The notes: a model not told the origin generated them from the letters alone. 64,000 bases of DNA from Chloroflexota bacterium (GCA_034666405.1 JAXDLW010000028.1:3295-67294), one strand, 5' to 3'; positions 39,557-55,848 are shown, counted from the first letter of the stretch. Made by a program: numbers and translations.

Positions 39557-39581
39557 CAGGGAGTCGCGGGAGGCTGATGCC

Positions 39582-40145
39582 ATGCGGAAACTGACCTTTG
39601 GCATGAACATGAGCCTGGACGGCTACATCACCGCGTCCGGCGACGACCTCGGCTGGAGCGTGCCGAGCGACGAGTTGTTCCAGTGGTGGTCCGACCGGGT
39701 GGGGGCCACGGGCCTGGCGCTGTACGGGCGCAAACTGTGGGAGACGATGAGCTCCCACTGGCCGACCGCCGACCAGGCGCCTGGCGCCACAGCGGCGCAG
39801 ATCGAGTTCGCCCGCCGCTGGGGGGACATGCCGAAGGTGGTGTTCTCCTCGACGACCAGCGCGGTCCACTGGAACGCCCGCCTCGTCACCGGCGACGCTG
39901 TCACCGAGATCACCCGGCTCAAGACCGAGGATGGCGGTCCCATGGACGTCGGCGGGGCCACCCTCGCCGCGGCGGCCATGCGGGCCGGGCTGATCGACGA
40001 GTACGCGATCGTCACCCACCCCGTCCTGGTGGGCGGCGGCACGCCGTTCTTCACGGCCCTGGACAACTGGGTGAACCTGGACCTCGTGGAGACCCGGACG
40101 TTTCCCGACGGCGTGCTCCTGACCAGGTACGAGACCAGGCGCTGA
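39582..40145 (+). CDS. Dihydrofolate reductase-like (RibD C-terminal) protein
   Basis: SLDGYI, YGRKLWE, GGATLA, LIDEY. Confidence 0.9.
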   Translation: MRKLTFGMNMSLDGYITASGDDLGWSVPSDELFQWWSDRVGATGLALYGRKLWETMSSHWPTADQAPGATAAQIEFARRWGDMPKVVFSSTTSAVHWNARLVTGDAVTEITRLKTEDGGPMDVGGATLAAAAMRAGLIDEYAIVTHPVLVGGGTPFFTALDNWVNLDLVETRTFPDGVLLTRYETRR

Positions 40146-40224
40146 ATACCCGACCTCGGATCGGCGCGGCCTCAGGCCACCCAGGGACCCCGGGCCGTCG
40201 GCTGAACGCTTTGAAGCTGGTGGC

Positions 40225-40267
40225 GTCGGGGAGGCGGGATTTGAACCCGCGACCCCCTGCTCCCAAA
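40225..40267 (-). repeat. 3' half of tRNA-Pro(TGG), distal attR-like copy
   Basis: TTTGGGAGCAGGGGGTCGCGGGTTCAAATCCCGCCTCCCCGAC, identical to 48817-48859. Confidence 0.9.
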
Positions 40268-40513
40268 ACACAAGCGCTACCTAAGAGGGCACTTTTGATC
40301 TTAGGAGCACCTCCTAATTCACCAACTGCGGCCTGCAGCGCGACCTGCCTCAACTTGTAACAGATGCCCAATAGACCCCAAAAACGGGCAAATTGGTAGC
40401 GCAATTTCGTGCGGATTAGGCAGGTCCAGGCCGGCCCATTTGCCTGTGCTTGCCACCGCCGTTCGAAGTCATATACATGCCGCCGAACCGGCGGCGCGAC
40501 GGCCACCCTTTGG

Positions 40514-41206
40514 TCACCCTGTGGGGGAAAGGGGTACGGGTCCAGGGAGTGGTCTCACCAAAGCGCGGGGTCGGCGTCGGATGACGTACTCAACGACCGC
40601 CAGGTTGATGACCCAGCCCGCGCCCAGCATCAGGCCGGTGGTGATGTCACTGGTGCCTAGGACGGCGTGCCCCACGCCCAGAGTGAATGCCTGGGTGCCG
40701 GCGGCGAGCGCTAGGGCGTAGGCCCGCGCCATCCATGCGCGGTGGCGCTTGACGTCGCCGCGTCGGATCGCGTTGAACCCGAGGATGATGCTGGCGGCCA
40801 TTCCGCTCCCGAATGCCATCCGGAACCCATAGGCCAACACTCCGCCGGGCGAGTGGGGGTAAAACGCTGTCATCCAAAGACCTGAGAACGCCACTGCCAA
40901 GCCCAGCGCCACCAGCGCCCGGCCACCGACCCGGTGCCACGCGGGCCAGCGGCGGCGCAGCCCGGTGGAGAACTGGAAGGCGCCGAGGACGGCGTACAAC
41001 AGGGCGCACGCGATGTGCACTGCCACGGGGATGGGCGAGGCGGTGATACGCGGGTTGGCGGGCATCAGGTGGGGACCGCCGGCCAGCTCTACCAGTCGCA
41101 TAGAGCCGGCGATGGCGGGGACTACGATGACGGCGATCAGTGGGTACGGCACCCACCCGATCGACGGAGTCGACCGGGTGGGGCGCACCGCGGATTGGGC
41201 GGTCAC
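40514..41206 (-). CDS. DUF2306-like membrane protein
   Basis: GAFQF, WHRVGGR, HRAWMARAY. Confidence 0.8.
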   Translation of the reverse strand: MTAQSAVRPTRSTPSIGWVPYPLIAVIVVPAIAGSMRLVELAGGPHLMPANPRITASPIPVAVHIACALLYAVLGAFQFSTGLRRRWPAWHRVGGRALVALGLAVAFSGLWMTAFYPHSPGGVLAYGFRMAFGSGMAASIILGFNAIRRGDVKRHRAWMARAYALALAAGTQAFTLGVGHAVLGTSDITTGLMLGAGWVINLAVVEYVIRRRPRALVRPLPGPVPLSPTG

Positions 41207-41889
41207 CCGGCACCGACCGCAGCGAGCTGCGAGGTGACGGGGTTGGAGACGGGCGAAGTGACCGGCGCGCTGCGCTGGCGCCACAGGGAGTAGCCAAGTC
41301 CGATCATGGCGATGCCAGTGGGAATGGGGAACAGCCTTTCGTATTGAGGCAAGATGGCGGCCCCGATGCTTGCCACGGTTCCGACAGCAAGCAGCGCGGC
41401 TGCCCACCTGGGGAGGACGTTGGCCCGGAACATTGCGATGCCGAACAGCAAGCCGCCGGCCAGGTAGCCGATGCCGGTGAGGTAAATGACGGTCTGCATA
41501 AGGCCGATGTCGCCGATGGCCTTGCCATTGTTAGCTGCGGCAATGAGGTCGGCCGTGTAGGCGGGTGCAGTGTGAGCGAGGGTTGGAAGGACGAAGGCAG
41601 CGACGAAGGCTGTGCAGGCGATGCCGAGGTACCCGGCGGTGAACAGGACAAAGCCGACCAGGCCCAGCACACCCATCTTCGTCACCTGGCGCGCGTACAT
41701 CCCGGTGATGCCAGCCAGGGCCAGCGCGGCCATGAGCAGCTTCAGGCTATCGCGGACGAGCACGTCATTGGTGGTGATCGACCTGATGTCCATATGGGGG
41801 TGCTTGACCTGGACGCCGATGAAGATGAGTCCCGACAGAGCTGCGGCGACTCCCGCAGCTCTGGTGATCTTGGTAGGGGTGATGGTCAT
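41203..41889 (-). CDS. Membrane protein
   Basis: AAGGAG RBS; FGIAMFRANVLPRWAA. Confidence 0.8.
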   Translation of the reverse strand: MTITPTKITRAAGVAAALSGLIFIGVQVKHPHMDIRSITTNDVLVRDSLKLLMAALALAGITGMYARQVTKMGVLGLVGFVLFTAGYLGIACTAFVAAFVLPTLAHTAPAYTADLIAAANNGKAIGDIGLMQTVIYLTGIGYLAGGLLFGIAMFRANVLPRWAAALLAVGTVASIGAAILPQYERLFPIPTGIAMIGLGYSLWRQRSAPVTSPVSNPVTSQLAAVGAG

Positions 41890-41918
41890 GTGGTTCTCCT
41901 TGTGTTGTTGGTTGGTTG

Positions 41919-42083
41919 TCATCTCGACTCCGGACCTCGTCCGAAACGAATCGCCGCGTCGACGCGGGCTTCTCGCCTGGCCGAAACCTCGCAGGCCCAG
42001 ACGAACTCGATGAGCTCCAGCAGTTGGGCATCGAGGGACGTGATTTGGGCATCCTCCGGTGGACCCTTTCGGTCGTCCTTCAT
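41919..42083 (-). CDS. Small hypothetical protein (54 aa)
   Basis: Start overlaps the upstream stop (ATGA); its own stop overlaps the next possible start. Confidence 0.4.
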   Translation of the reverse strand: MKDDRKGPPEDAQITSLDAQLLELIEFVWACEVSARREARVDAAIRFGRGPESR

Positions 42084-42301
42084 TGCTGTCCTGCCGGGAG
42101 TGCTGGCGAAGATGCCAGGGTGATGACCTCGTAGCCGTGGAGGGCCTCGAGGAATGGCTGGACGCTGCCGCGAACGACACAGCGCAGGTGCTGGCGGTCG
42201 ACCACTACGTCGCTGACTCCGGACGCCCGTTCGACCTGTCGCGTGGGCAGCGAGCCCACGAACGTGACCTCGACTCTGTAGATCGGTAGGTGCTGGTTCA
42301 T
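42080..42301 (-). CDS. Small protein resembling an ABC-ATPase C-terminal domain
   Basis: GVSDVVVD..LRCVVRGSVQPFLEAL; leaderless start. Confidence 0.6.
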   Translation of the reverse strand: MNQHLPIYRVEVTFVGSLPTRQVERASGVSDVVVDRQHLRCVVRGSVQPFLEALHGYEVITLASSPALPAGQQ

Positions 42302-42330
42302 ACTGGCTAGCGTGGGTTCTGAGCTCGAAC

Positions 42331-42364
42331 GCGGCATCGGCAGAATTGCTGATTCGATGCATAG
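42331..42364. promoter_or_regulatory. Repeated operator, copy 1
   Basis: GCGGCATCGGCAGAATTGCTGATTCGATGCATAG, 31/34 identical to 46491-46524. Confidence 0.75.
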
Positions 42365-42408
42365 TCGACGGGGGACGAGCGGGCCGGCGGGACAAACTCG
42401 CATACAGG

Positions 42409-44694
42409 ATGGCCAGGCCTAGCCACCGCGTAGGAAACCTCCCCGCAGAGGCAACGACGTTCGTCGGACGCCGACGCGAGCTCAGCGAGATCAGAACGAG
42501 ACTGGCGACCGCCCGCCTGGTCAGCCTCGTCGGGCCGGGCGGTGTGGGCAAGACGCGACTCAGCCTGCGGGCTGGAAGCGACCTCGCACGCGGCTTCTCC
42601 GACGGTGCCTGGTTCGTAGAACTCGCTGAGGTCCGGGACCCTGCGCTGGTACCGAACGCCGTCTCGGCCGCTCTCGACCTCAGGGACCAGGCCTCCACGA
42701 GCCCGATGGCGATCCTCGCCGCATATCTAAAGGACCGACAGCTGCTGCTCATCCTTGACAACTGCGAGCACGTTTTGAGAGCCGCCGGTCAGGTAGTGGC
42801 CGAAATCCTGCGGGCTGCGCCGAAGGTCCGCGTGGTCGCGACCAGCCGCGAGCCGCTCCAGGTGGCGGGAGAGCAGGTCGTAGCTGTGGCGCCGCTCGAG
42901 CTACCCCAGGAGGCCGGCACCGAACCTCTCGCCCAGCTTCGCCAGAACGAAGCGATCGCCCTTTTCACCGAGCGAGCCGTGGCGGCGTCTGGATCGTTCG
43001 AAATCACCAGCGCTAACAGGAGGGCAGCCGTGGCCCTGTGCCGGCGGCTCGACGGTCTGCCTCTGGCGATCGAGCTGGCGGCCGTGCGGACGCGGGTGCT
43101 CAGCGTGGAGCAGATCCTCGTGCGTCTGGGCGACCGCTTCGCGCTCCTCACCGGAGGGGACCGCGCCGCACTCCCCCGCCACCAGACGCTCCGCCTGGCC
43201 ATCGACTGGAGCTTCGACCTGCTTGCCGAGCCGGAACAGGTGCTGATGAGACGCCTCTGCGTCTTCGCGAGTCGCTTCACCCTTGAGGACGTCGAGGGTG
43301 TGTGCATTCTGGATACCGAGCCGAGCGCGGCGGCCCTGGAGCTGGTTGCATCCCTGGTCGACAAGTCGCTGGTGAGCAAGGAGGATATCCACGGCACGGC
43401 CTGTTACCGGCTCCATGAAACGATGCGTGAGTACGCCGGAATCAAGCTCCGTGCGGCAGGTGAGGAGGAGACCCTCGCGCGGCGCTACCTGGAGTTCTAC
43501 GCGAAGTCCGCTCTGCGGTCGGCGGAGGACGGTCGTTACCGACTCATCGAATGGATGCAGTGGGCGGAGTTGGAGATCGACAATATCCGAGCTGCGCTGC
43601 AGCAATGCGTGGTCAGGGAGGACCGCGCCCGCGGACTCGATATCGTCGCCTCCCTGCGCTACTACTGGCTAACGCATGGAACCACCGAGGCCGTTGGCTG
43701 GCTGGATCAGCTGCTGGATTCGGAGGTGGCGTCAGCCTCGGCCCTGTACCTTCGGGGCTGGCTGAGCCTGGCCCAGGCCGATCCCCCGACCGCCAGGCAG
43801 TGGCTGGCGCGAGCGATATCCACCGCACGTGATGAAGGTCAGCTGGTATTGCTGACCGAGGCTTTGTCGATGGCGGTCATCGCTGACCACCTGGCCGGGG
43901 ACGATGCCTCGGCAAAGCTCCACCTCGACGAGGCGGAGGCCGTCGGCGCGGGCCTGAAGACTTACCCCGCGATGATCGAGGTATTACAGGCCCAAGCCGT
44001 CCACGCGATGTTTGACAGTGATTTCGAATCGGTCAGAGCAAAGTCTGCTGAGGGGGTACGCCTGGCCCGCGACGCCGGCGACCTGTACCTACTGGAGGCC
44101 ATGCTGCGAAGCCTGGCCACGGCCGCGATGATGTCGGGCGACACCGCAGCGGCCAACTCGTCGTTCTCGGATGCGCTCCGGGTCGCGCGACGCGTCGACA
44201 ACCGGTTGGCCCAGTCCTACGGCCTTGCGGCGGCCGGCTGGTACGCCGCCACGTCCGGCCATGCCCGCCCCGCGGCCCAGCTGCTTGGGGGGGGCGAGGC
44301 TCTGGCCAGGCAGACCGGGGCGGACATCAGCGGACCGTCCATACCGTACGTTGTGAAGGCGCGGGAGGCTGCGGTAACGGAACTCGGTGCCGTCGCCTTC
44401 GACGCTGAATTCACGGCGGGAAAGCAGCTCAGCCGAGAGGAGGCCGTACGGCTGGCGCTGGGGGAATCCGGGATGGAAAATGCGGGCGCAGTCGATGCCC
44501 CGGCGGCGGGACCGCTCGCCCGGCGGGAGATGGAGGTCTCGAAGTTGATCGCCGAGGGCCTGACCAACAAGCAGATCGGGGCGCAGTTGTTCATCTCAGA
44601 GCGAACCGTCGCGAGCCACGTCCGCAGCATCATGGACAAGCTTGGGTTCAACAGCCGCGCCCAGATCGCCGTCTGGATGACGACGCCCGCCTAG
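42409..44694 (+). CDS. ATPase-TPR-LuxR HTH (STAND/LAL-type) regulator
   Basis: GPGGVGKT, LDNCEH, LDGLPLAIELAA, C-terminal GLTNKQI..ISERTV. Confidence 0.92.
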   Translation: MARPSHRVGNLPAEATTFVGRRRELSEIRTRLATARLVSLVGPGGVGKTRLSLRAGSDLARGFSDGAWFVELAEVRDPALVPNAVSAALDLRDQASTSPMAILAAYLKDRQLLLILDNCEHVLRAAGQVVAEILRAAPKVRVVATSREPLQVAGEQVVAVAPLELPQEAGTEPLAQLRQNEAIALFTERAVAASGSFEITSANRRAAVALCRRLDGLPLAIELAAVRTRVLSVEQILVRLGDRFALLTGGDRAALPRHQTLRLAIDWSFDLLAEPEQVLMRRLCVFASRFTLEDVEGVCILDTEPSAAALELVASLVDKSLVSKEDIHGTACYRLHETMREYAGIKLRAAGEEETLARRYLEFYAKSALRSAEDGRYRLIEWMQWAELEIDNIRAALQQCVVREDRARGLDIVASLRYYWLTHGTTEAVGWLDQLLDSEVASASALYLRGWLSLAQADPPTARQWLARAISTARDEGQLVLLTEALSMAVIADHLAGDDASAKLHLDEAEAVGAGLKTYPAMIEVLQAQAVHAMFDSDFESVRAKSAEGVRLARDAGDLYLLEAMLRSLATAAMMSGDTAAANSSFSDALRVARRVDNRLAQSYGLAAAGWYAATSGHARPAAQLLGGGEALARQTGADISGPSIPYVVKAREAAVTELGAVAFDAEFTAGKQLSREEAVRLALGESGMENAGAVDAPAAGPLARREMEVSKLIAEGLTNKQIGAQLFISERTVASHVRSIMDKLGFNSRAQIAVWMTTPA

Positions 44695-44716
44695 GCTGAC
44701 GGGCGTCCCAGGCAAC

Positions 44717-45538
44717 TCAGGTCACGTCCCTGAGCCTCAGAAGCCCTGCAGAGAGCACCACGAATCCGACGACGTAAGCGCCCAAGACAAGTACTGCCTG
44801 TCCGGACCCGATGGCCGGCGCCGGCATCGGGCCGAAAGCTGGCGAGGTGAAGGACTGGAGCAGGGCGCCCGCATTCTGTCCGACGAACAGCTTCGCGATC
44901 CATTTGTAGGCACCGTCGTTGAGGCTGCCGATGACACTCACGCCGAGAAGCTCCACTGCCAGAACGTAGACCAGGCCGACGCTGATGGCGGCCGCGGAGT
45001 GGCGGAGCAGGACGCCGAGCGTCATGCCCAGCGCCCCGTTTGCCATGAAGACCAGCCAGACGGCTCCAAGACCCGTGAAGATGGTCTGCACTGCCGGCCA
45101 TGCGATCCCGTGACCCTCGGATGAGGCCACGATGAGACTGCTGGCGGCGCCGGTGGTGAAGAGGACGATGGCCATGACGACCATCCAAGCTCCGAAGACG
45201 ACGACCCGGCCGGCCCAGTTCGTGAGGCGCCCAGGGCCCTGTGTCAGCGTGGTCTTGGTGGTACCCCACGCGTATTCCGACCCGGTGAGCAGGGCCCCGA
45301 GCACGACCGCCATGACCTCGCCGAGGAACAGGCCGGGGTTCATCACATTGTTGACGAACTCGTGCGGGTAGAGAGAGAGGAGCGACACGCCCTGGCTCTG
45401 TTTGGCGCCAGGGTGAAGCGCCAGGTACCAGACGAAGCCGTAGACCGCCACGGTGATCGCGGCGACGGCACCAAGGGACAAGAGGAAAGCGGGCCGGGAA
45501 CGGCTCTTGCGCCATTCGGCTTTGATGGTTGCGATCAT
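44717..45538 (-). CDS. ABC-2 type permease
   Basis: GSEYAWGT, six TMs, RLRDVT end. Confidence 0.88.
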   Translation of the reverse strand: MIATIKAEWRKSRSRPAFLLSLGAVAAITVAVYGFVWYLALHPGAKQSQGVSLLSLYPHEFVNNVMNPGLFLGEVMAVVLGALLTGSEYAWGTTKTTLTQGPGRLTNWAGRVVVFGAWMVVMAIVLFTTGAASSLIVASSEGHGIAWPAVQTIFTGLGAVWLVFMANGALGMTLGVLLRHSAAAISVGLVYVLAVELLGVSVIGSLNDGAYKWIAKLFVGQNAGALLQSFTSPAFGPMPAPAIGSGQAVLVLGAYVVGFVVLSAGLLRLRDVT

Positions 45539-46461
45539 GATCCTTGCTTATCTCCTGTGAGCTGGAAGAAGACGTCCTCCAGCGAACGGTCCAATGGACG
45601 GAGCTCGCTGACGCCGATGCCGGATGCGGTCAACTGCCGGTTGATCTCCAGGCTCTGCCCTGGGTCTGTCCTGACGTTGAAATGGCCGTTCTCGCGGACG
45701 ACGGCCGCGGTCCCGAACATGCGCGTGAGCACCTCCTGTGCGCGGTCCGATGAGTCGGCCCGGACGAAAACGCCCTCGTCGCCAAGCAGGTCCTCCACCG
45801 TGGACTCCCGCACGAGCTTGCCGTTGGCGATCACCCCGACGCGGTCACAGGTCTGCTGGACTTCGCCGAGCAGGTGGCTGGAGATCAGAACGGTCCGGTC
45901 TCCCTGGCCGGTCTGGGTGATGAGCTTGCGCATCTCGGCCATGCCCTGCGGGTCGAGTCCATTCGTAGGCTCGTCCAGGATCAGCAGGTCCGGGTCCTTG
46001 AGCAGGGCCGCTGCGACCCCGATCCGCATCCTCATGCCAGTCGAGTAGGTTCCGAATTTGCGCCCGGCGCGTGATGTCATCTCTATAAGGTCGAGGACCT
46101 CGTCGACCCGCTTCTGGCTCACGCTGGCCAGGTCGGCGACGACGCGCAGGTTGTGGCGGCCCGAGAGGTACGGGTAGAAGCCGGGCCCTTCGATGAGGCA
46201 TCCGATCTTCGCCAGCCCCGCCGGGTCGCCGGGTGGGTGGCCGGCGATCTTGATGGTTCCCGATGTCGCGCCGATGAGGCCGACGAGCATCCGGAGCGTC
46301 GTGGTTTTTCCAGCCCCGTTGGGGCCGAGGAATCCGTAGACCTCGCCGCGTCTGACTGTCATATCGACACCATCAACCGCGAGGAATCCGCTTCCGAATC
46401 GCTTGCTGAGACCGCGGGCCTCGAGAATCGCTTCGTGTTGGTTTATCGAGTTGTCGTTCAT
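45535..46461 (-). CDS. ABC transporter ATP-binding protein
   Basis: GPNGAGKT, YSTGM, ILDEPTNG. Confidence 0.93.
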   Translation of the reverse strand: MNDNSINQHEAILEARGLSKRFGSGFLAVDGVDMTVRRGEVYGFLGPNGAGKTTTLRMLVGLIGATSGTIKIAGHPPGDPAGLAKIGCLIEGPGFYPYLSGRHNLRVVADLASVSQKRVDEVLDLIEMTSRAGRKFGTYSTGMRMRIGVAAALLKDPDLLILDEPTNGLDPQGMAEMRKLITQTGQGDRTVLISSHLLGEVQQTCDRVGVIANGKLVRESTVEDLLGDEGVFVRADSSDRAQEVLTRMFGTAAVVRENGHFNVRTDPGQSLEINRQLTASGIGVSELRPLDRSLEDVFFQLTGDKQGS

Positions 46462-46490
46462 GTTGGCCAGCGTGACGCAGCCGGGGAAGC

Positions 46491-46524
46491 GCGGCATCGG
46501 CAGAATTGCTGAGTCGGTGCGTAG
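46491..46524. promoter_or_regulatory. Repeated operator, copy 2
   Basis: Same 30-nt offset from the ATG as copy 1. Confidence 0.75.
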
Positions 46525-46573
46525 GGCAGACAGGAAGCGCCCTATCTGCGCCCGCAGGGCGCAGACTTGACCC

Positions 46574-47845
46574 TTGAAGCTCCGACCTGCCACCGAGGCT
46601 GCTCTGCCCCTTCAGCCTCCGGCGGTAGCCCGGGTCGGCTGGGGCTTCATCTCGCTCTACGCGATGGCGTTCATGAGTACCAGCCTGGTGTTCATCGCGC
46701 CGCTGCTGGTCACGCTGCCCCTGAAGATCAACGCCCTCGTGGGGATCGGACGGGCACCGGCCAGCCTGGCGCTGGTAGCCGGGGTCGGCGCCCTGGTGGC
46801 CATGGTCGGCAATCCGTTCTTCGGCAGGATGAGCGACCGGACCACGTCGCCGCTGGGCATGCGGCGACCGTGGATGGTCATCGGTCTGGTCGGTGGTTGT
46901 CTGGGAATACTGATCGTCGCGCTGGCGCCAAGCATCCCGGTGGTCCTCGTCGGCTGGTGTACCGCGCAGCTGTTCTTCAACGCTCTGCTGGCCGCACAGG
47001 TGGCGGTGCTGCCCGACCAGGTGCCCGTCGCTCAACGCGGTCTGGTCTCTGGGGTCCTCGGCGTCTGCCTGCCGGTCGCGGCCGTCGGCGGCACCCTGCT
47101 CGTGAAATTGCTCACCGGCAACCAGCTGGCCACCTTCCTGGTGCCATGCCTGGTGGGAGGGTTCTTCGTCCTCCTTTTCGCGGTCCGGCTCAAGGATCGC
47201 CGGCTCGCCACCATCGACCGGCCAACCTGGTCGCTCCGTGAGTTCGCAACCACGTTCTACGTCAAGCCTCGGACCAGCCCCGATTTCGCCTGGGCATTCG
47301 CCAGCCGCTTCATGTTCCTGATGGCGTATGCCTTCTTGACGACGTACCAGGTGTACTTCCTGCTCGACAAGATCGGCACCTCAAAGTCCGACGTGCCCCA
47401 GCAGATATTCCTGGGGACGCTCGCCCAATCCGCCGTCGTCGTCCTGGCATCGCTGATTGGAGGAAAGCTCTCCGACTGGACTGGACGGCGAAAGATCTTT
47501 GTCTTCACCGCCTCACTCGTCTACGGCCTGGCTATGTTCGCGGTCGCGGTCGCGACGAACTTCAATGGCTTCCTGGTCGGGATGGCCATCAGCGGACTCG
47601 GTTTCGGCATGTACGTCGCTGTCGACCTGGCCCTCGTCGCGGACGTGCTACCCAAGCGAGCCGACGCCGCCAAGGATCTCGGTGTGTTCAACATAGCCGG
47701 CGCACTCCCCTTCTCCATCGCGCCGGCGCTCGCGCCGATCATCCTCTTGATCGGCCGGGGAAGCTATAGCGTGCTGTATGCGGTCGCAGGCGTCTGCGCG
47801 ATCATCGGGGCGGTCGCCATCCTGCGCGTGAGAGGGGTGCGGTGA
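46574..47845 (+). CDS. MFS transporter
   Basis: [24 protein letters not shown], 12 TMs. Confidence 0.9.
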
Positions 47846-47863
47846 CCGGTCGCGCGGATCCGC

Positions 47864-47992
47864 TCACGAAGGGGCTAGCGTAAGCAGGCCGTTCCCGGTC
47901 TTCTGTTGCGTCTCGACGTATCGCGTGGCTTCGATGACCTCAGCCAGTAGATAGGGGCGATCTGTGACCGCCCGGTACCTCCCGTTCTCCAT
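47864..47992 (-). pseudogene. C-terminal fragment of an MDR-family (quinone oxidoreductase-like) dehydrogenase
   Basis: GRYRAVTDRPYLLAEVIEATRYVETQQKTGN. Confidence 0.55.
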
Positions 47993-48727
47993 GAGCAACC
48001 TCGACGGGCACGTGCCCATCGATGAGGCGGTGGGCACCCCAGAACTCGAAGTAGGTCCGGATCACGAGCTGTTCAACCACCTCCAGGTTGGGGCTTTCGG
48101 GGAGGACTGAAGTCTTCTGCGCCGCCTCCATTCGCTTGAACCCGCGGTCCGCCTCCCGCTGGACCTGGCCCAGCGTCCACTTGCCGCTCTTGATCTCCTT
48201 GAGCTCCTCGGCGTCGATGTTCGTCCGGTCGACGTGGAGCTCGCCGGTCTCCATCAGTTCGCAACCCATGCGCAGCAGCCGCAGGCAGTGCGCGGCGTTC
48301 TTTAGGTCATAGCCATGGCGGAGGAAGAGCTCCTTGCGCTCGCGGCCCATGTACCCGCGGGTGTTCGGAGAGCCAAGCCGGTGCAGGACGCATCGCTCCG
48401 GCAGCCAGAACATCCCCATGACGTTGGGATTGCCCTTGATCAGCAGCTTGGTGAACTTCTTGACCGTGTATGAGAGACCACGTCCAGTTCGTCCTTGTGC
48501 CAAACCCAGTGCTCGAACTCCTTCAGGCCCAGGATCGCCTCCGGCGGCGGCACCACGGCCATCATGATGTCGACGTCATCGATGTGGAGCGGATCCGCCT
48601 TGGGGACGTAGGTGCCGTGACTGATCGAGTCCATGTTGGCCGCGATCAGGCATTCGTTGATCGGATCCCAGGGGTGAGGGAAGGCAGCCTGAACTCGGAC
48701 CTTCCAGTCGGACGGCGCCAGATTCAT
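47940..48727 (-). pseudogene. Disrupted Pol-beta-superfamily nucleotidyltransferase (Nuc-transf/RlaP-like)
   Basis: DSISHGT..DDVD, KGNPN, GYDLKNAAHCLRLLRMG. Frameshift at a TCTC duplication near 48470; apparent internal deletion. Confidence 0.75.
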
Positions 48728-48814
48728 GCGGCGGAGCCTACGGGGTCCTGCGGCCCCGAGGTGTACTCCGCCTACTCGAAGAATCGCCTCGGCACCACCA
48801 CGGTACCAATCGGT

Positions 48815-48859
48815 TGGTCGGGGAGGCGGGATTTGAACCCGCGACCCCCTGCTCCCAAA
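48815..48859 (-). repeat. 3' half of tRNA-Pro(TGG) ending in CCA, attR-like copy
   Basis: Anticodon loop through ...CTCCCCGACCA. Confidence 0.9.
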
Positions 48860-49034
48860 TTACTTGCGCTACGAAACGGACCAGTTTTGAGTTCAGGAGC
48901 AGCACCTAATCCAACGAAAGCCGCCTGTAGGACGGCATGCTTAATTTTGTGACGATCGCCTAATACAGGTTCATGGGGCCTTCAGAACGGTTCATCCGGC
49001 CGGTTGAATGAGGCTCCCGCTGCGCATCGGAGAA

Positions 49035-49250
49035 TCACCGCGAAGCGAGCTTCTCTAAGAGCCTGCGGTTCCTTTGGAGCGAAGCGCGCAACCGCGCCTG
49101 GAATGCCTTGTCCTTGCGTCGGCTCTCGATATGACCCCCGATCGCCTGCCGTACGGCCTCGGCGACGGACATGCCGTCGGTCGCGGCGACCGCCTCCAAC
49201 TCGGCCGCCTGCTCAGCTGGCAGCCGCACCGTCATCGACTTGTCTGCCAT
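49035..49250 (-). CDS. Ribbon-helix-helix antitoxin-like protein
   Basis: KSMTVRLP...GMSVAEAVRQAI; upstream inverted repeat TGCCACC/GGTGGCA overlapping a TAGCGT -10. Confidence 0.8.
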   Translation of the reverse strand: MADKSMTVRLPAEQAAELEAVAATDGMSVAEAVRQAIGGHIESRRKDKAFQARLRASLQRNRRLLEKLASR

Positions 49251-49302
49251 GCCACCACGCTACCACGGTGGCACCCTCGAAACCGTCGGCTGTGGGTCTA
49301 AG

Positions 49303-49515
49303 TCACTGAGCGGCTGCGGTCTGCGCGGAACAGACGCTCGAACTCCGCCACAATCCCACCAGCATGCTTCCGGCCAGAAGGAGCACGCCGGTAACTGCTA
49401 GAGGAACCGTCAGCCAGTCGTAAGGGCCGCCGCTCGCCAGGACGCCGACAAGCGCCAATCCAAAGCCCAGAACCAGGACCAGAACGCGAACGTAGAAGAG
49501 CGAGCGCCGGCTCAT
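49303..49515 (-). CDS. Small two-TM protein
   Basis: Two hydrophobic helices. Confidence 0.5.
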   Translation of the reverse strand: MSRRSLFYVRVLVLVLGFGLALVGVLASGGPYDWLTVPLAVTGVLLLAGSMLVGLWRSSSVCSAQTAAAQ

Positions 49516-49569
49516 GGTCACTCGCACAGGCGCTTGGGCAACCCGCGTGCGAACCTGAGCAAAGAAGAC

Positions 49570-49905
49570 CTATTCGGTTGACGACGCCGGGATGGGCAGT
49601 GACACTCGTTCGTCACCGAAGACCGCCGCAACCTCGAGCTTTCCGTCGATCGCCTCCAGATAGGCAGCAAGAGTTCCGAGATCCACGACCTCCTGGTGCT
49701 CAATCCGGGACACATTGCCCTGTGTTCTGTTCAGGCGTTCCGCAACGGCGCTCTGAGTTAGTGCCTGCTGCTCCCGAAGACGCTGAAGCGCCTCACCGAT
49801 ACTGTACGCCGCCAGATCAGCGTCGACCCGCCCCCGCCGGGCTGGGTTCTCGTCGATTTCCCTGGCCAGCTCGCTGAACTTACCGTGCCTCTTCATGACT
49901 GCCAT
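49570..49905 (-). CDS. HigA-like XRE antitoxin
   Basis: LTQSAVAERL..TQGNVSRIE; coupled to the toxin gene. Confidence 0.85.
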   Translation of the reverse strand: MAVMKRHGKFSELAREIDENPARRGRVDADLAAYSIGEALQRLREQQALTQSAVAERLNRTQGNVSRIEHQEVVDLGTLAAYLEAIDGKLEVAAVFGDERVSLPIPASSTE

Positions 49906-50261
49906 CAGAGTTCTCCTTCGGATCTGAGTTCATCCAGGTATTCGTCGTAAAGGCCCTCAGCCTTGGGCACGTTCTCCGCATACCAGGTGTTCCACTGGCC
50001 GGCTTTGTCGCCACCAAGGAGCAGAACGGCGGTACGGCGCGGGTCAAACACGAACAGGATCCTGATGGAGCTCCCAAGGGGCCTGAGCTCCTTCAGATTC
50101 GAGACGGATGAATACACCAGGGTGTCCACCAAGGGTCGCCCCAAGGTCGGCCCATCCTGCACGAGCTTCTCCACGGCCGCACGAATCCGCTCTTGATCCC
50201 GACCGCTGACTGTCTCGTACCACCGTCTGAACTCCTCCGTGACCTCAGGGTCGCGGTCCAT
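49905..50261 (-). CDS. RelE/HigB-like toxin
   Basis: GPTLGRPLVDT, LKELRP, IRILFVFDPRR, LLLGGDK. Confidence 0.88.
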   Translation of the reverse strand: MDRDPEVTEEFRRWYETVSGRDQERIRAAVEKLVQDGPTLGRPLVDTLVYSSVSNLKELRPLGSSIRILFVFDPRRTAVLLLGGDKAGQWNTWYAENVPKAEGLYDEYLDELRSEGEL

Positions 50262-50270
50262 TAGCTCCGC

Positions 50271-50299
50271 ATAGTATCAGGCCGGCATAATATCTGCAA
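50271..50299 (-). promoter_or_regulatory. Sigma-70 promoter of the higBA-like operon
   Basis: TTGCAG-17 nt-TACTAT, overlapped by direct repeats GCATAGTATC/GCATAATATC. Confidence 0.7.
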
Positions 50300-50332
50300 G
50301 CCGGCCGAGGGTCTCCCAAGACATCCCACACC

Positions 50333-50575
50333 CTACCTGGATGCCCCGTCGTGATCACGGAGGAGCCTCAGGGCTTTGGCGTGTTTCTCGACCATCTTCC
50401 CTGCAAGAACGTCGATCCCTTCCGTGAGGTCGCCTGCCCGGAGCATGCGTATCTCCCCCGTGGGATCGCGCTCGACGAGGACATAGGCTCCGGGTCCAAA
50501 ACCCGACTCCTCCCACTGCTTGGGCAGGGCGACCATGTTGCTGTTCCCGATGCGGCGAATCTTGAGCATCTTCAT
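50333..50575 (-). CDS. AbrB/MazE-type antitoxin
   Basis: LKIRRIGNSNMVALPK. Confidence 0.82.
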   Translation of the reverse strand: MKMLKIRRIGNSNMVALPKQWEESGFGPGAYVLVERDPTGEIRMLRAGDLTEGIDVLAGKMVEKHAKALRLLRDHDGASR

Positions 50576-50590
50576 GCCGAATTCTATCCA

Positions 50591-50611
50591 GCGGATATCT
50601 GGGATATCCGC
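50591..50611. promoter_or_regulatory. Palindromic operator upstream of the AbrB-like gene
   Basis: GCGGATATC-TGG-GATATCCGC. Confidence 0.65.
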
Positions 50612-50634
50612 GCGAAGCGAGGGACGAAGACGAT

Positions 50635-50693
50635 GGCCGGATTTGAACTAGCGACCCCCGCGTCCCAAACGCTGTGCGCTACCGGGCTGCGCC
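50635..50693 (-). pseudogene. Degenerate tRNA-Pro(TGG) copy lacking the acceptor stem
   Basis: 56/59 identical to the core of the tRNA at 55652-55728. Confidence 0.85.
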
Positions 50694-50793
50694 CACCTCG
50701 GAACCCGGCGCAAGGGCAAGGTCTTCCAGGCAGGGCTGCGGGCGTCTCTCGAGCAAAGTCGGAAGATCCTCGAGGCAGTTGTCGTTTCAGACC

Positions 50794-50871
50794 CCTGGGG
50801 TGCGGAAAGGCAGCGCGAACCCGATCCTTCGAGTCGGCGGGTGCCAGGTTCGTCCCGGTCAGCGCCCCGGG
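50794..50871 (+). ncRNA. Candidate structured RNA
   Basis: Outer stem CCTGGGGTGC/GCGCCCCGGG and inner stem GCGAACC/GGTTCGT. Confidence 0.35.
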
Positions 50872-50933
50872 CGAGGGGTTAGGTGCGAAGCGTTCACGCG
50901 GGTAGACTAGCGACTCTTCCTGGAGGAACCGCC

Positions 50934-51176
50934 GTGGGCAACGAGTTCGACGCCGACGCGCCCCGCTTTCGAGCGGAGCAGCAAGCGCCGCAAGGGCTAC
51001 CCGTCCGAGACGCACGTCAAGCGTGGCGTGCGGATCGTTCACGGCTTTCAAAGAGCTAGAGGAAAAGCTCGGACGCAACGATCCCTGCCCCTGCGGGTCA
51101 GGTCGCCGCTTTCAAGCGGTGCTGCGCTGGCAGCGGCCGCTTCGACGGCTCGCCGAGGAACCACTACTCGCGGTGA
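50934..51176 (+). CDS. SEC-C zinc-binding protein read through three +1 frameshifts
   Basis: GGAGG-7 nt-GTG start. Reassembled product: [79 protein letters not shown]. Confidence 0.75.
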
Positions 51177-51189
51177 TGGACGCCGGCCG

Positions 51190-51786
51190 TCAGAGAGGGG
51201 CCCCCTCAAGGATTCGCTTCAGGCACCTGAAGTCGGGACTTCGGTAGATCCAGCCTATCGCGGAGCTGGCGCACGCCGCTACGGCTGGTAGGCCATCCAC
51301 AGTCGCATCGAGCAGGACCCGGCTTTGCTCCCCCATGTCCTCAACTATGTAGGCGGAGACAACGCTCATACCTCTGCCGGCCGCAGTGATCTCGACCAGC
51401 CGTGGGGGCTCCAATCGGCTGAACCTATGCATCATGCGGGATTGCTTGCGCCACCGCCGTTTCGACGCGAACGTCCATTCCTGACCCACTTCCGGCGGGA
51501 CATCGGCAGGCTGACAGGCGCCCACCCGTGGATTCCACAACGGCTGATTGGCCGGCCTGGCAAGAAACTCGAAGACCTGCCCGGCTGGGCGGTCGATCGT
51601 CACGCTCTGACGGATTCGGGCGGTGACCGGGAACGGATAGTAAAGCGCTACACCCCACAGCGCGATGGCGAGAAACACCCAATACCCCAGCTGGAGTGGG
51701 TACAAGGCCAGGCCCACCACCGCACCGACGGACACGAAGGACCAGACCACGAATAGCGGCCAAACATGAGCTCTCCGAATGCTCAC
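51190..51786 (-). CDS. Membrane-anchored SRPBCC-family protein
   Basis: [26 protein letters not shown] after two TMs. Confidence 0.75.
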
Positions 51787-51868
51787 TGATGCCCCCGCAA
51801 CTGAGATCCCATCACCTCCGGGTCCCTCCGCACCATCGGCTGACTAGCGGATGCCGCCCCGTTGGGGC

Positions 51869-52372
51869 TCACCGCCGCTCCGGGGGACGGATCGTGCTCC
51901 GCAGGATAGACCGTAACTTCGGATCCTGGACATCCGGCAGACCACCATCGAACGGTCCGGGAGGTAGTTCGCCGGACCGCTTCTTCCGGGCGATGTCCCC
52001 CCACATGGCCAGAAGGGCATCCCACGCGGTAGTAGATGCCGGGCCCAACCAGGGGTGCAATGCCAACGGGTCCAGGTCGGCCCAACCGAGCGATCCTTGG
52101 AGGTCCTCGAGAACGCCAGTGACGGCCAGTTCGGTCTCGTCTGACTCGTTGGCGACGTACTCCTCCATTGTCCTGAAGAAGGCCGGGAAGCAGTCGGTTT
52201 CATCGCGGGCCAGCGCCTGGACGACCACCTCCGCGAGGGCCGCAGCCTGCATATAAGGCAGCGGCTCAGACTCGTCGTCGGCTCGCTCGGATTCCCAGGC
52301 TGCGCGGAGCGCGGGGCAGGCGCTCAGCAAACGCTGAATCAAGCCTTCGCGAAGGTCCGAGGGCTCGTCCAT
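51869..52372 (-). CDS. Hypothetical protein (acidic, helical)
   Basis: Long ORF; ELAVTGVLEDLQ..PWLGP motif. Confidence 0.7.
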   Translation of the reverse strand: MDEPSDLREGLIQRLLSACPALRAAWESERADDESEPLPYMQAAALAEVVVQALARDETDCFPAFFRTMEEYVANESDETELAVTGVLEDLQGSLGWADLDPLALHPWLGPASTTAWDALLAMWGDIARKKRSGELPPGPFDGGLPDVQDPKLRSILRSTIRPPERR

Positions 52373-52587
52373 GGTGGCAATTGTGGCGGACCCGACCCGG
52401 ACGGCTGGGCTCTGAGCTGATCGGTGACGTTCGTCATGCCCTTTCAGGTGACGAACTTGACTTTTCGAACAGCCTGGACTTCTATACCGTGGCGGCATAG
52501 GAAACACAGCCGGGAAGGTAAAGAGCCGGGGCGGCCGGGCGACGCCAAGCGGGCTCCGCGACTGACATGGTGTGATTCACTATCGCC

Positions 52588-53100
52588 GTGCCGACGGTTC
52601 GGATCCCACTCGGTCTAATGATCGCGGGCCGGCTTCCTGATGTCTGTGTTAAGACGGGGGCCCCGACAACTGACCGGGTTCGCGTAGTGTTCACCCCTCG
52701 GTCAGGAGCGCTGGCTGTCGTAGCCATGACGGCGGGACTCCCGGCTGACCTCGACGTCGCATGGGGACCGATTCCGCTTTCAGCACGAGCCGCGAACCGG
52801 CTGACGAGGATCAACCGACTTACAGGAGGCGGGTTGGCGATCGGTGGCCTAATGATGCTGTTCGTTGTTGCTCGGGCATTCCTGTCCGGGAGCGGGATCA
52901 GCCCCTTAGGGGTTGTGCCAGTCGCGATCCTGCTGGTGGTGGTGATGGCACGACTATTCGTGGCTCCGCGCGTGGGCATTTACGGGGTCTACAAGAAGGC
53001 CCGGGGTACGGACCCTGACATGATCGAAATTCAGCGGGCCCACCCCGCCTTCATTGCTGCGCTGCCGCAAGACTGGTCTCCAGCAGACTCGCCCGATTAG
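52588..53100 (+). CDS. Hypothetical membrane protein
   Basis: LPDVCVKTG...AHPAF motif, two TMs. Confidence 0.65.
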   Translation: MPTVRIPLGLMIAGRLPDVCVKTGAPTTDRVRVVFTPRSGALAVVAMTAGLPADLDVAWGPIPLSARAANRLTRINRLTGGGLAIGGLMMLFVVARAFLSGSGISPLGVVPVAILLVVVMARLFVAPRVGIYGVYKKARGTDPDMIEIQRAHPAFIAALPQDWSPADSPD

Positions 53101-53152
53101 CCGCGACCCGGCCCACTTCTTGAACAACCCGCACCCCGTCCAAACCAGGCTA

Positions 53153-53926
53153 ATGGCCATCGAATCGCTGGCCGGGGTGCTGGCTTCGGCATTCGGGTTG
53201 GTGTTCGTGGCTTTCGCCGTCTTCGCGCCGATTGTCGTCTCGGGTAAGCGGTTCGTCGCTCACTCGGCTCAGCAGTGCATCTCCGGGATACAGACGAATC
53301 TCAGCACCCCGGGGCATGTCAGCATCGTGAGCCGAGGCGAAGCTCTCAACTATCTGCCCGCCCTCATCTTCTTCCTGCTCCCGGCTCTCGCGGCTATCAG
53401 ACACCAACAGACGGATCATCATCGCTGGCTCGTTCTGCCTTGGGCGGTGGCGGGACTGACCGGAATCGGGGCCACAGCCGGCGGCTGCAACAGCCTCGTC
53501 CTGAATCCGCTCGCGGCTGTTACCTTCGTATCAGCCAGCGCCGGCACGACGGCCGCGGTCCTCAGTCGAGGGCGCAAGGACATGCGACCCGCTGAGACAA
53601 GCCGTCGATACGTCGTCCTGACTCTGGTTCTCCTCGTCCTTCTGTGGCCGTTGGGAGCTGCAATGGTCCTCCTTTCGCGGAGCTGGACCGTGCACCAGAA
53701 GATCGTCGGTGTAGCATCCTCGGCCTTTGCGGTCGTCATCTACCCGATTGGTTTCATCGCCACCGTTGGTCCGCTCGGACAAGCCCTCCATGCGAGCGAA
53801 GGTTGGAAGGTTGCCATGACGTTCGCGGGAGGCGTGCCACTGTGGGCCATCCTGATCTGGTCGGTGGTCTACCTGGCCAAAGGAAGACAGCGCAGCGGCA
53901 CGAGTGAAGTCCATCCCGATCTTTAA
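53153..53926 (+). CDS. Hypothetical polytopic membrane protein
   Basis: About seven hydrophobic segments. Confidence 0.6.
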   Translation: MAIESLAGVLASAFGLVFVAFAVFAPIVVSGKRFVAHSAQQCISGIQTNLSTPGHVSIVSRGEALNYLPALIFFLLPALAAIRHQQTDHHRWLVLPWAVAGLTGIGATAGGCNSLVLNPLAAVTFVSASAGTTAAVLSRGRKDMRPAETSRRYVVLTLVLLVLLWPLGAAMVLLSRSWTVHQKIVGVASSAFAVVIYPIGFIATVGPLGQALHASEGWKVAMTFAGGVPLWAILIWSVVYLAKGRQRSGTSEVHPDL

Positions 53927-54425
53927 CCCGATGGCGCGAAGACTCGGCGCGTTCGTCGTATTGGGCATGAGTGCCCTCGTCGGATGTTCTCCGCCGCCGA
54001 CGACGGCTCCAACGTCCTCGCTGCCGACAGTGATCGTGTCTCGCCTCGGCCCAAATCCGCCTGGCGGATACATCCTCGAGGCGACAGACATTGCGGGAAT
54101 GAGGGCTATGGCCTGTAAAGCGGAAGCTGCACCCGCGACGGCCTGCTGGCCCGACGCTCAGCCGTCCGCGCAGCTAGTCCTTCTCGCCTTCGGCGGGTTC
54201 ACTCCGTGCCTGCACCTAGATCGCGTCCACGCGGTCAAAGGACCAAGCGCCGTGACACTTCACATATATCGGCGGCGAGAATCGTGCCTGACCAACTCCC
54301 CTGACAGACCTATGGCGCTGATCGGAATCCGCAGCGACGACCTGCCCCCATACGCCCGAGCTGACCTGCCGCGAGCGATCGATGGAGTCGAGCCGCCGAT
54401 CGTGCCCGACTATATCGACGAGTAG
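53904..54425 (+). CDS. Hypothetical Cys-containing lipoprotein
   Basis: Lipobox LVGC followed by a Pro/Thr linker. Confidence 0.55.
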   Translation: MKSIPIFNPMARRLGAFVVLGMSALVGCSPPPTTAPTSSLPTVIVSRLGPNPPGGYILEATDIAGMRAMACKAEAAPATACWPDAQPSAQLVLLAFGGFTPCLHLDRVHAVKGPSAVTLHIYRRRESCLTNSPDRPMALIGIRSDDLPPYARADLPRAIDGVEPPIVPDYIDE

Positions 54426-54687
54426 CCGAGACGTCCGACCCTAGAGGGCTGGATCGAGCGGTTTACTCTCGATTGCCAGGACGCCAAACACGCATTCGTG
54501 GACCCGATGGAGAGGCTCCATGACGACGAACCGATCAAGCGCCTCATCGGCGAGGGCGAACTCGCGCTCGGCCAGTGAGCTTCCGCCCTGGATCGGTTCC
54601 CAAGCCGCTAGAGGTCGGCCTCTGCATATATATATGTTGCGGGCCGTGAATGATCTGGCACAACGGCAGACCGTGCGTCCTGCGCCG

Positions 54688-55506
54688 CTATCGATAGAGG
54701 GCAATCGGCGTGATGATTCCGCCTGGACCCTTGACCACTATTGGTCCGACGACACCCGCGGCGTCGCCCTCGGGTTTGGCTCCCCTGACCAACTTCCTTC
54801 GCTGCGCCCGGGGGACCATCTCGATGCCAGGAAAACCGCCCGGGATAGCAAATTGCTCAGTCGGGGCAAACTTTCGCTGCACCATCCCGAGGAGGGTCAT
54901 CTCCCCGTCCATCGCATCGGCATCGATAAGCAAATGGCTAACGTCGAGTTCTGAAAAGAAGTGGAATCTTCTCGCGCCGGCCAGGGTCGCTGCAAGGGGA
55001 AGCTTGTTGTTGTCTGCTGAGCCGAGCGCCGAACCCCACATCTTCACCTGATCAAGCTGGGATTCATCGGCCGCACCGAACGCCCTCAGAACCGGCGCGA
55101 GCCGCTCAGCTGTGCGCAGGAACTGGGTGGCCTTCGCCATGCCCGCTACCTCCACGACAACCTCGAGCTCAACGACCTCATTCTTTTGAATCTGACCCCA
55201 GATCCCATCGTCCATTGCGGCGAGAGGCTGTATACCGTCAGCCTCCGTCATCAGTCGGTGAAGACGGGCGAACTCTGACGCCGGCGTCTGGCTTACGGTC
55301 TGCGACACCTCGTGCCCAGCAGTTTTCCTTAAGTCCACGCGACCGGTCATCGGACCCGCGGTCACCCCGCCGCCGGCGCCCTTCGAGCCTCCGCGCGTCG
55401 TCGTTGTCTGAGCGTCTTGGGTCAGCCCTTCCTCGAGTTGACCCAAGAACCGTTGAACCAAATCGCGATTCAGGTATGTGAAATCACGAAGAATCAACCT
55501 CGGCAT
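54688..55506 (-). CDS. Hypothetical protein (DUF6414-like)
   Basis: LRDFTYLN..V..FLGQLEEG start and ITPIALYR end; GGAGG RBS. Confidence 0.75.
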   Translation of the reverse strand: MPRLILRDFTYLNRDLVQRFLGQLEEGLTQDAQTTTTRGGSKGAGGGVTAGPMTGRVDLRKTAGHEVSQTVSQTPASEFARLHRLMTEADGIQPLAAMDDGIWGQIQKNEVVELEVVVEVAGMAKATQFLRTAERLAPVLRAFGAADESQLDQVKMWGSALGSADNNKLPLAATLAGARRFHFFSELDVSHLLIDADAMDGEMTLLGMVQRKFAPTEQFAIPGGFPGIEMVPRAQRRKLVRGAKPEGDAAGVVGPIVVKGPGGIITPIALYR

Positions 55507-55651
55507 CGCAGTCTCCCTCCATGCTCAGTCTATGGCGACCCAGCGAACAGTACCAGAACATGCGTTCGTGATCGTACTGCTGCCGATCGATCCCGGTACC
55601 TCCCCCACGACCGGCCACTCAGGAGTCGAAAATGGTGTTCGAAATCAGCAT

Positions 55652-55728
55652 TGGTCGGAGAGGCCGGATTTGAACCGGCGACCCCCGCGTCCCAAACGCG
55701 GTGCGCTACCGGGCTGCGCCACTCTCCG
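55652..55728 (-). tRNA. tRNA-Pro(TGG), complete with encoded CCA
   Basis: CGGAGAGTGGCGCAGCCCGGTAGCGCACCGCGTTTGGGACGCGGGGGTCGCCGGTTCAAATCCGGCCTCTCCGACCA folds as a cloverleaf. Confidence 0.97.
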
Positions 55729-55770
55729 CCGTATTTGATTCTGCCTTCAAGGAGGTTGAACTCGGCGCTA

Positions 55771-55809
55771 TCCCAAAGCAGGTGCGCTACCGGGCTGCGC
55801 TACTCCCCG
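55771..55809 (-). pseudogene. 5' half of the original tRNA-Pro(TGG), attL-like
   Basis: CGGGGAGTAGCGCAGCCCGGTAGCGCACCTGCTTTGGGA; TACTAT -10 at 55821-55826. Confidence 0.9.
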
Positions 55810-55848
55810 AAGGTCGAGAGATAGTATCCGGCCCTAGACTGGCGCCGG

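Follow-up and report, generated by a model that had tools for sequence, protein, structure and literature searches.

We examined a 64,000-nt stretch of DNA, hereafter the window (G000:C28), from a Chloroflexota bacterium of the soil group Candidatus Dormibacteria, whose draft genome comprises 3.24 Mb in 57 contigs and is 94.9% complete. The window contains a tRNA-Pro(UGG) locus at which the native gene is split and two islands, A (55770-48860) and B (48814-40268), have accreted side by side. All tRNA pieces and attachment arms lie on the minus strand and are described in that direction. The host upstream region (55810..55837) holds a -10-like TACTAT at 55826-55821, 11 nt before an orphan 5' half of the native tRNA (55771..55809; 39 nt, tRNA positions 1-39). 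This half ends in TTTGGGA (55777-55771), which is the anticodon loop and also the crossover core on the host side of the left attachment site (attL). On the island side of attL there is a 42-nt spacer (55729..55770), which we call Y, and then a complete replacement tRNA-Pro(UGG) gene (55652..55728), which we call tRNA'; it is of a CGGAGAG type and encodes its own CCA. Past the cargo of island A (48966..55651) come arm X1 (48860..48965), the island-side arm of that island's attP, and a first native 3' half (48815..48859), which runs from TTTGGGA to ACCA and marks the A/B junction. Island B repeats this order, with its cargo (40374..48814), its own island-side attP arm X2 (40268..40373), homologous to X1, and at the distal end of the array a second native 3' half (40225..40267) that runs from TTTGGGA to AC and continues with G. 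We use "X arm" for the ~105 nt before each 3' half.

The 5' half is separated from its matching 3' halves by 6.9 and 15.5 kb, both lying downstream, and the only gene in the window that ARAGORN calls as a tRNA is tRNA', which scores 65.3 bits against the Rfam tRNA model (gathering score 29). Neither ARAGORN nor Rfam calls a tRNA when the 5' half is read on into Y, indicating that no functional tRNA has been rebuilt at attL. Joined by script to a 3' half, the same 5' half forms 21 of 21 cloverleaf pairs. A preliminary description of this DNA had given the coordinates of the halves and of TACTAT, had stated that the halves join into a perfect 77-nt tRNA, and had noted that the 5' half is unrepaired in place, with a complete tRNA-Pro following a 42-nt spacer. 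All of this holds on the minus strand, as does its account of compensatory changes in the acceptor, anticodon and T stems of the replacement, where five pairs are changed on both sides.

The junctions of the array share a common anatomy. The sequences leading into the two 3' halves are homologous, within a 149-nt repeat of 75% identity, and a 67-nt pattern derived from them matches two sites in the window and none in 100 shuffles, which is far beyond chance. When attP, composed of X1, core and Y, is compared with attB, the identity consists of exactly TTTGGGA, with mismatches on both sides. The array contains three att-type junctions in all. Beyond this genome, the arm recurs in two of four congeners (G001-G004, Ca. 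Dormibacteria metagenome-assembled genomes, or MAGs, of the same genus as G000). X1, one of four copies that were aligned, is 75% identical to X2, 82% identical over 179 nt to a copy on G002:C1 and 79% identical to one on G004:C37. Arm X1 also contains GTAGCGCA, which is similar to a tRNA D arm. The anticodon loop as a sublocation of integration was reportedly recognized by Williams in 2002.

To interpret the split gene, it is necessary to know which tRNA-Pro type belongs to the host. An intact gene corresponding to the joined halves is present in three of the four congeners (G001, G003 and G004), at the syntenic site, where it adjoins a block equivalent to 58.2-62 kb of the window. The G000 halves match the intact G001 gene at 38/39 positions in the 5' half and at 45/45 and 43/43 positions in the two 3' halves, and the 5' half likewise matches the genes of G003 and G004 at 38/39. 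Members of other genera in the family (G005, G006, G007 and G010) share the CGGGGAG acceptor of this gene, together with a CCTGC anticodon stem and a GCCGG T stem. At 11 of its 77 positions tRNA' departs from the native gene, and 21 of 21 cloverleaf pairs still form; the pairs altered on both sides are 4:70, 30:42, 31:41, 32:40 and 52:64, position 9 is changed as well, and three of the five anticodon-stem pairs are unlike those of the native gene.

The replacement gene has a narrow distribution, and none of the conclusions drawn here depends on G032, a genome flagged as unpublished. Its closest native counterparts among 40 relatives are ~90% identical and come from other genera of the family, and an exact 44-nt tRNA' pattern searched against genome contigs had its sole match on a G002 contig. 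The CGGAGAG type was seen only in G000 and G002, each time behind a broken native 5' half, and was absent from every examined relative without the split. It is conceivable that the CGGAGAG type is the native one and that the halves are scraps of elements with tRNA-like attachment sites, and in fact the GCCGG T stem and position 9 of tRNA' are as in the tRNA-Pro of the family's other genera. However, none of the three unsplit congeners has a CGGAGAG gene, all three have CGGGGAG at the syntenic site, the type is found only together with a broken half, and the halves join into the exact congener gene. We therefore consider this alternative extremely improbable. Judged by these comparisons, the CGGGGAG-type gene is native at this locus and tRNA' is foreign to the host lineage. 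The preliminary description had raised the possibility that relatives without the island carry the CGGAGAG type natively, and since no unsplit relative has it (G001, G003 and G004 carry the CGGGGAG type), that objection falls away.

Elsewhere in the draft genome, ARAGORN finds 49 tRNA genes, among which tRNA' is the only Pro-TGG gene; the remaining Pro genes are one GGG and two CGG. No second copy of the native 5' half was found in G000.

The same junction occurs in a second species. On a single 5334-nt contig, congener G002 has its own diverged version of the syntenic block, followed by the 5' half, the spacer and tRNA', which match those of G000 at 38/39, 37/42 and 73/74 positions, respectively. 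Homology between the two genomes then ends at the 3' end of tRNA'. A matching right end lies on G002:C1, where a ribbon-helix-helix (RHH) gene, a DUF6933 gene, the X arm and a 3' half follow one another. The DUF6933 gene, in the region L024 (G002:C1) 2613-3320, has no counterpart between the RHH gene and the X arm of G000 (a 508-nt difference). In the 3' half of G002 the cut falls within the T loop, following GGGTT, with PIN-domain genes next.

This recurrence could have arisen by two insertions or by descent from one. Over 2110 columns, the host DNA of G000 agrees with that of G002 at 71.7%, no congener is less like G000 than G002, and a five-genome tree does not group the two (bootstrap 57-63). 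The last 20 nt before the G002 gene are those of G001, and 19 nt of the G000 upstream flank are those of G004. Under a single ancient insertion in the ancestor of the genus, the element would have been kept in G000 and G002 and precisely excised in G001, G003 and G004, and the shared junction would carry no information on recent movement. Precise excision would indeed rebuild the native gene, and the right ends of G000 and G002, at 77-82% identity, are not far above the host background of 72%; the tree, moreover, is poorly resolved. However, non-functional halves should drift, and if they had done so since the hosts split (28.3% divergence), finding at most one difference in 39 positions would have a probability of P = 3.8e-5. 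Nor have the two 3' halves diverged from functional genes, to which both remain identical, and the dissimilarity of G002 and the agreement of the flanks with G001 and G004 likewise count against shared descent. We regard a single old insertion, with precise excisions later, as unlikely. Instead, these comparisons point to two separate insertions of related elements, that is, to a mobile module targeting the 7-bp loop. If there were two insertions, it would follow that Y and tRNA' belong to the element and that the cut directly after TTTGGGA reflects site-specific recombination rather than a chance deletion.

The spacer itself may hold a record of how this module arose. Y can be aligned to the T arm and acceptor strand of tRNA-Pro with two deletions (CGCCGAGTTCAA......CCTCC). 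The score of this alignment against the family-type gene was reached by 13/5000 shuffles for the G000 spacer and by 666/5000 for that of G002; against tRNA', the corresponding counts were 60/5000 and 127/5000, and another shuffle test of the G000 spacer gave 22/3000. The CTCCTTG of Y, followed by A, could pair 7/7 with the native 5' acceptor strand, and the predicted precursor fold uses this CTCCTTG helix, at a stability not above that of shuffled sequences (z = -1.3). The resemblance is suggestive, and Y is probably the decayed relic of a tRNA 3' half that once restored the target, lost after the element had gained a whole tRNA. Decay of the restoring half after gain of a tRNA is one of the possible routes listed for tRNA-replacing phages (PMC10865867).

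The resemblance of Y to a shortened T arm and acceptor strand would also be expected if integration had been canonical, rebuilding the native tRNA with tRNA' as a spare alongside, and the redundant rebuilt copy had then lost its 3' half in the chromosome. That an X-arm relative is of the restoring type lends this some credence, as in G004 the tRNA is intact and contig C37 carries an X arm with a 3' half. By this account, however, an identical decay would have had to happen twice, given that G002 has the same short spacer and junction behind a different host flank. The adjoining 5' half is also undecayed (38/39 against functional genes), which fits decay within the element before insertion. Decay in this chromosome is accordingly improbable. 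Because the 5' half beside Y is intact to this degree, decay more likely took place inside the element.

An error of assembly or binning could produce a similar picture, with tRNA-half repeats giving rise to a chimeric contig. The genome is a MAG-like draft, and Logan contigs break at the 43-nt repeat of the 3' halves, which is longer than their word size. Against this, one contig from run X1 spans 48830-55800 without differences, and contigs from run X2 span 55679-57200 (again without differences) and 48830-55708. The 5' half, spacer, tRNA' and host flank are bridged without differences in two runs, and depth over host and islands is even (~16-17 in X1). As runs X1 and X2 may be source data, the independently assembled G002, which has the same junction within a contig and next to its own host flank, is the stronger control. 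Because the junction is bridged in two runs and shared by the G002 assembly, the misassembly that had been raised earlier as an alternative is very unlikely.

Rejoined halves were also encountered. One contig from run X3 joins 48852 to 55771 through the shared 7 nt, forming an intact tRNA-Pro(TGG), and loose contig ends run from the 3' halves into a 5' half. These cannot be assigned to this strain because congeners with an identical gene may share the same soils. Contig joints with AACCCCATT between their sides belong to other tRNAs.

Taken together, we favor a reading in which the tRNA-Pro(UGG) locus holds two accreted, recombinase-less islands, of which island A split the native gene and supplied its replacement; we assign this a probability of roughly 0.8. 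The core of the preliminary description, that an element broke the host tRNA and brings a full replacement, is supported by the intact CGGGGAG gene of the congeners. Island A would have entered by site-specific recombination, with its identity to the target confined to the 7-bp anticodon loop TTTGGGA, and because the identity is limited to these 7 bp, the host gene would have been cut and not rebuilt. This would have left the native 5' half behind the host upstream region and native-type 3' halves in two places, where A meets B and where B ends. In exchange, the element would have brought a complete cognate tRNA-Pro(UGG), placed 42 nt past the crossover in the same orientation, which would now be the sole gene for this isoacceptor.

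How tRNA' is expressed can be suggested from its position. The gene reads away from the host upstream region, with the crossover 42 nt before it, and for this reason may use that region for its transcription. The TACTAT box is found at the same distance in four of the five genomes of the genus (G000, G001, G002 and G004, the exception being G003), and no well-placed -10 was seen in Y. tRNA' is thus most likely read from the host upstream region, in which case a precursor leader of ~85 nt would presumably be removed by RNase P. A scan of 55400-56000 for consensus sigma-70 promoters and terminators found nothing, and because of this we can only infer promoter function; no RNA run was found to contain the region.

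The preliminary description had further proposed that this end of the island is indispensable and that an altered attachment site may exclude competitors. The first proposal would hold in part. It would apply to imprecise deletion and not to precise excision, because the latter would rebuild the native gene, whose halves still form 21 of 21 pairs. As for the second, the altered anticodon stem of tRNA' may shield it from the same integrase family, which at this stage is speculation.

Several observations weigh against the favored reading. No recombinase was found in island A or B, where the open reading frames (ORFs) were annotated with Pfam (29 ORFs), PHROGs (18), NCBIfam (12) and PADLOC (13). 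A six-frame search of the whole genome with PF00589 (tyrosine integrase) returned two matches, none of them on this contig, and a whole-genome search with PF00239 (serine recombinase) returned none. PF00589 had 22 matches in G001-G004, with none on the short G002 and G004 contigs that carry the att sites; one is located on G003:C4, 44 kb from the G003 tRNA. Because no recombinase was found, we infer site-specific integration from the anatomy of the junctions alone. A free attP form (X-TTTGGGA-Y-tRNA') or a complete element was likewise not found. Three scans of viral contigs with exact tRNA', spacer and X-arm patterns gave 0 matches, as did scans of metagenome contigs with a 46-nt tRNA' pattern and an X pattern. 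Of the 11 genomes of the order that were searched, only G000 (two copies), G002 and G004 (one copy apiece) contain the X arm. The tree that bears on the number of insertions is based on 2.1 kb and resolved no better than stated above, and the relic signal of the spacer is weak for G002 against both tRNA types. As the draft is incomplete, a second Pro-TGG gene could have escaped assembly. Lastly, the model does not explain a tRNA'-like pseudogene within island A.

This pseudogene (50635..50693, minus strand), which the preliminary description missed, is identical to tRNA' positions 9-67 at 56 of 59 sites and lacks a working acceptor stem. It scores 24.9 bits with Rfam, below the 29-bit threshold; its anticodon stem and its T stem are both broken, the 3' strand of the acceptor is missing, and the piece lies 59 nt upstream of a MazE-like ORF. 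We considered whether it is the attR of an element nested in tRNA' and rejected this, since an attR would have retained the 3' acceptor strand and since the flanks of the pseudogene are not homologous to those of tRNA'. It may have been left by a second replacement module or by an element that accreted earlier.

Neither island resembles a phage. PHROGs detected no phage structural or lysis genes among 18 island ORFs, the only matches being to a regulator, a toxin and a nucleotidyltransferase. The GC content over island A is 0.61-0.64, compared with 0.70 in the flank above 56000. Toxin-antitoxin genes abound in the array, and the islands of relatives are likewise rich in them and without an integrase on the available contigs. 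G004 combines its intact tRNA with a further site, on a 2.8-kb contig of its own (C37), where an X arm precedes a 3' half. Because of this combination, the X-arm family can include islands that restore their target in the usual way, as island B and the G004 element appear to do. The array as a whole fits decayed, att-flanked islands in tandem accretion.

A comparable strategy has been described as tRNA-dependent lysogeny (Guerrero-Bustamante and Hatfull, mBio 2024, PMC10865867), with the actinobacteriophages Fionnbharth (K4), Cluster L, Cain (K6), BrutonGaster/OneUp, Mollymur and Gaia given as cases. In that paper's account, a tyrosine integrase uses an attB within a tRNA gene through a core of 8-17 bp, the tRNA is not rebuilt, and the lysogen depends for its survival on a phage tRNA of the same isotype that makes good the loss; closely related phages may be restoring types. 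The present locus corresponds to that outline in several respects: its attB lies in a host tRNA gene, the core is short (7 bp), the gene is not rebuilt, and the element carries a cognate tRNA. Close relatives of the element are also restoring types. The disrupted gene may have been the only one for its isoacceptor, as one Pro-TGG was found among the 49 tRNA genes of the 94.9% complete draft. By contrast, there is no tyrosine integrase and there are no phage genes here, and the host belongs to Ca. Dormibacteria rather than Actinobacteria. The tRNA of Fionnbharth is reported to lie elsewhere in the phage genome with its own demonstrated promoter (PMC10865867), whereas in island A the crossover and the replacement tRNA are 42 nt apart, and the host upstream region lies behind that tRNA. 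Among the papers listed in a literature search on tRNA-dependent lysogeny, none was seen, judging by titles and abstract openings, that deals with non-phage islands or Dormibacteria.

The novelty implied by the preliminary description is therefore lower than it seemed, since the strategy has been known since 2024; what we describe is a non-phage, integrase-less variant in a new lineage. Moreover, neither island contains an integrase.

Other known systems share parts of this arrangement. Canonical islands in tRNA and tmRNA genes (cf. Islander, PMC4383910) have a tRNA target, an anticodon-loop crossover, a displaced 3' fragment and tandem arrays in common with this locus. However, island A does not regenerate its target and there is no tyrosine integrase, whereas the G004 relative does regenerate the gene. 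The array also recalls cis-mobilizable elements (CIMEs), described in PMC5704250 as decayed integrative and conjugative or integrative and mobilizable elements (ICEs/IMEs) of Firmicutes that have kept attL and attR. Like the CIMEs of that account, the islands have lost integration and transfer genes, kept att sites and come to lie in tandem at one tRNA gene. They contain no recognizable conjugation or mobilization gene except for a small RHH/NikA-like protein. CIMEs can be mobilized, in cis or in trans, by the integrase of a related element; no excised form of the present islands was seen. In Sinorhizobium meliloti, host tRNA genes are reported to have been substituted by prophage-related sequences (PMC11476347), and the Lj965 prophage of Lactobacillus johnsonii is another case of tRNA substitution, as cited in PMC10865867. 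In those cases as here, a host tRNA is replaced by an element-borne tRNA resembling the genes of other taxa, but the elements, as these sources present them, are prophage-related and have integrases.

These comparisons bear on how widely tRNA replacement should be expected. Experimentally, tRNA-replacing integration has been shown only for actinobacteriophages, and here it is seen in non-phage, decayed islands of soil Ca. Dormibacteria, where an element-derived tRNA has been left as the only tRNA-Pro(UGG) gene found, in two species. If Y is a decayed restoring half, the element may represent an evolutionary intermediate, which is relevant to a question raised in PMC10865867, namely whether the element tRNA or the short core came first. 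There are practical consequences as well. Island-finding programs that look for a regenerated tRNA at one end would overlook islands of this kind or place them wrongly, and tRNA phylogenies built from MAGs can be confounded by element-derived genes.

A broader scenario can be put forward tentatively, and we regard it as doubtful. The X-arm islands may be a recombinase-less family specific to Dormibacteria that is still moved by a recombinase encoded elsewhere, one branch of which switched from restoring to replacing the tRNA. In that branch, the 3' half of attP would have become Y, a tRNA placed at the crossover would capture the host upstream signals, and its recoded anticodon stem would no longer offer the core site. 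If so, each insertion would permanently exchange the host tRNA-Pro(UGG) gene, after which related elements could no longer use the site, and turnover of tRNA genes in uncultured soil bacteria would be driven by mobile islands.

Island A, annotated with Pfam, PHROGs, NCBIfam and PADLOC, encodes DUF6414, a Pnkp remnant, several unknown ORFs, DUF7674, an SRPBCC protein and a MazE-like protein, followed by a Gp49/HigB-like toxin with a helix-turn-helix (HTH) antitoxin and the RHH/NikA-like protein, which adjoins X1. The Pnkp remnant (54441-54704, minus strand) corresponds to the last 46 residues of the 851-residue bacterial polynucleotide kinase-phosphatase (TIGR04075, E = 4.9e-16) and is thus a truncated RNA-repair gene within the island, near the replacement tRNA. 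The Gp49/HigB-like toxin ORF (49905-50261) abuts the HTH ORF (49570-49905, minus strand), and the two are probably a toxin-antitoxin pair. The MazE-like ORF (50333-50575) is an orphan, and its homologue in G004 adjoins a Fic/Doc fragment.

Island B, annotated with Pfam and PHROGs, encodes a nucleotidyltransferase-like ORF, a major facilitator superfamily (MFS) transporter, an ABC transporter pair, a LuxR-STAND regulator, an unknown ORF and DUF2306. It also contains a 35-nt direct repeat, 91% identical, at 42330-42364 and 46490-46524. One copy lies at the start of the LuxR-STAND gene and the other at the divergent start of the ABC and MFS genes, and the repeat may be a shared operator or promoter.

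The flanks of the array differ among the congeners. Below 40225, nothing in the host flank is matched in G001, G003 or G004, and the only match is a RibD_C gene, found only in G002. Because the flank is unmatched in those three genomes, the distal border of the array is set by the last 3' half alone. The RibD_C-domain gene (39568-40146, plus strand), just past this 3' half, is 88% identical at the DNA level to G002 L031 4204-4782, compared with a host background of ~72%, and it may reflect a recent exchange or be a further island gene. At the opposite end, it is only in G000 that a gene for a 352-residue membrane protein (55849-56907, plus strand) separates a phosphoglycerate-mutase-like gene from the tRNA locus. 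The mutase gene of G001 and G003 has the tRNA directly after it, and homologues of the membrane gene are found elsewhere in the relatives.

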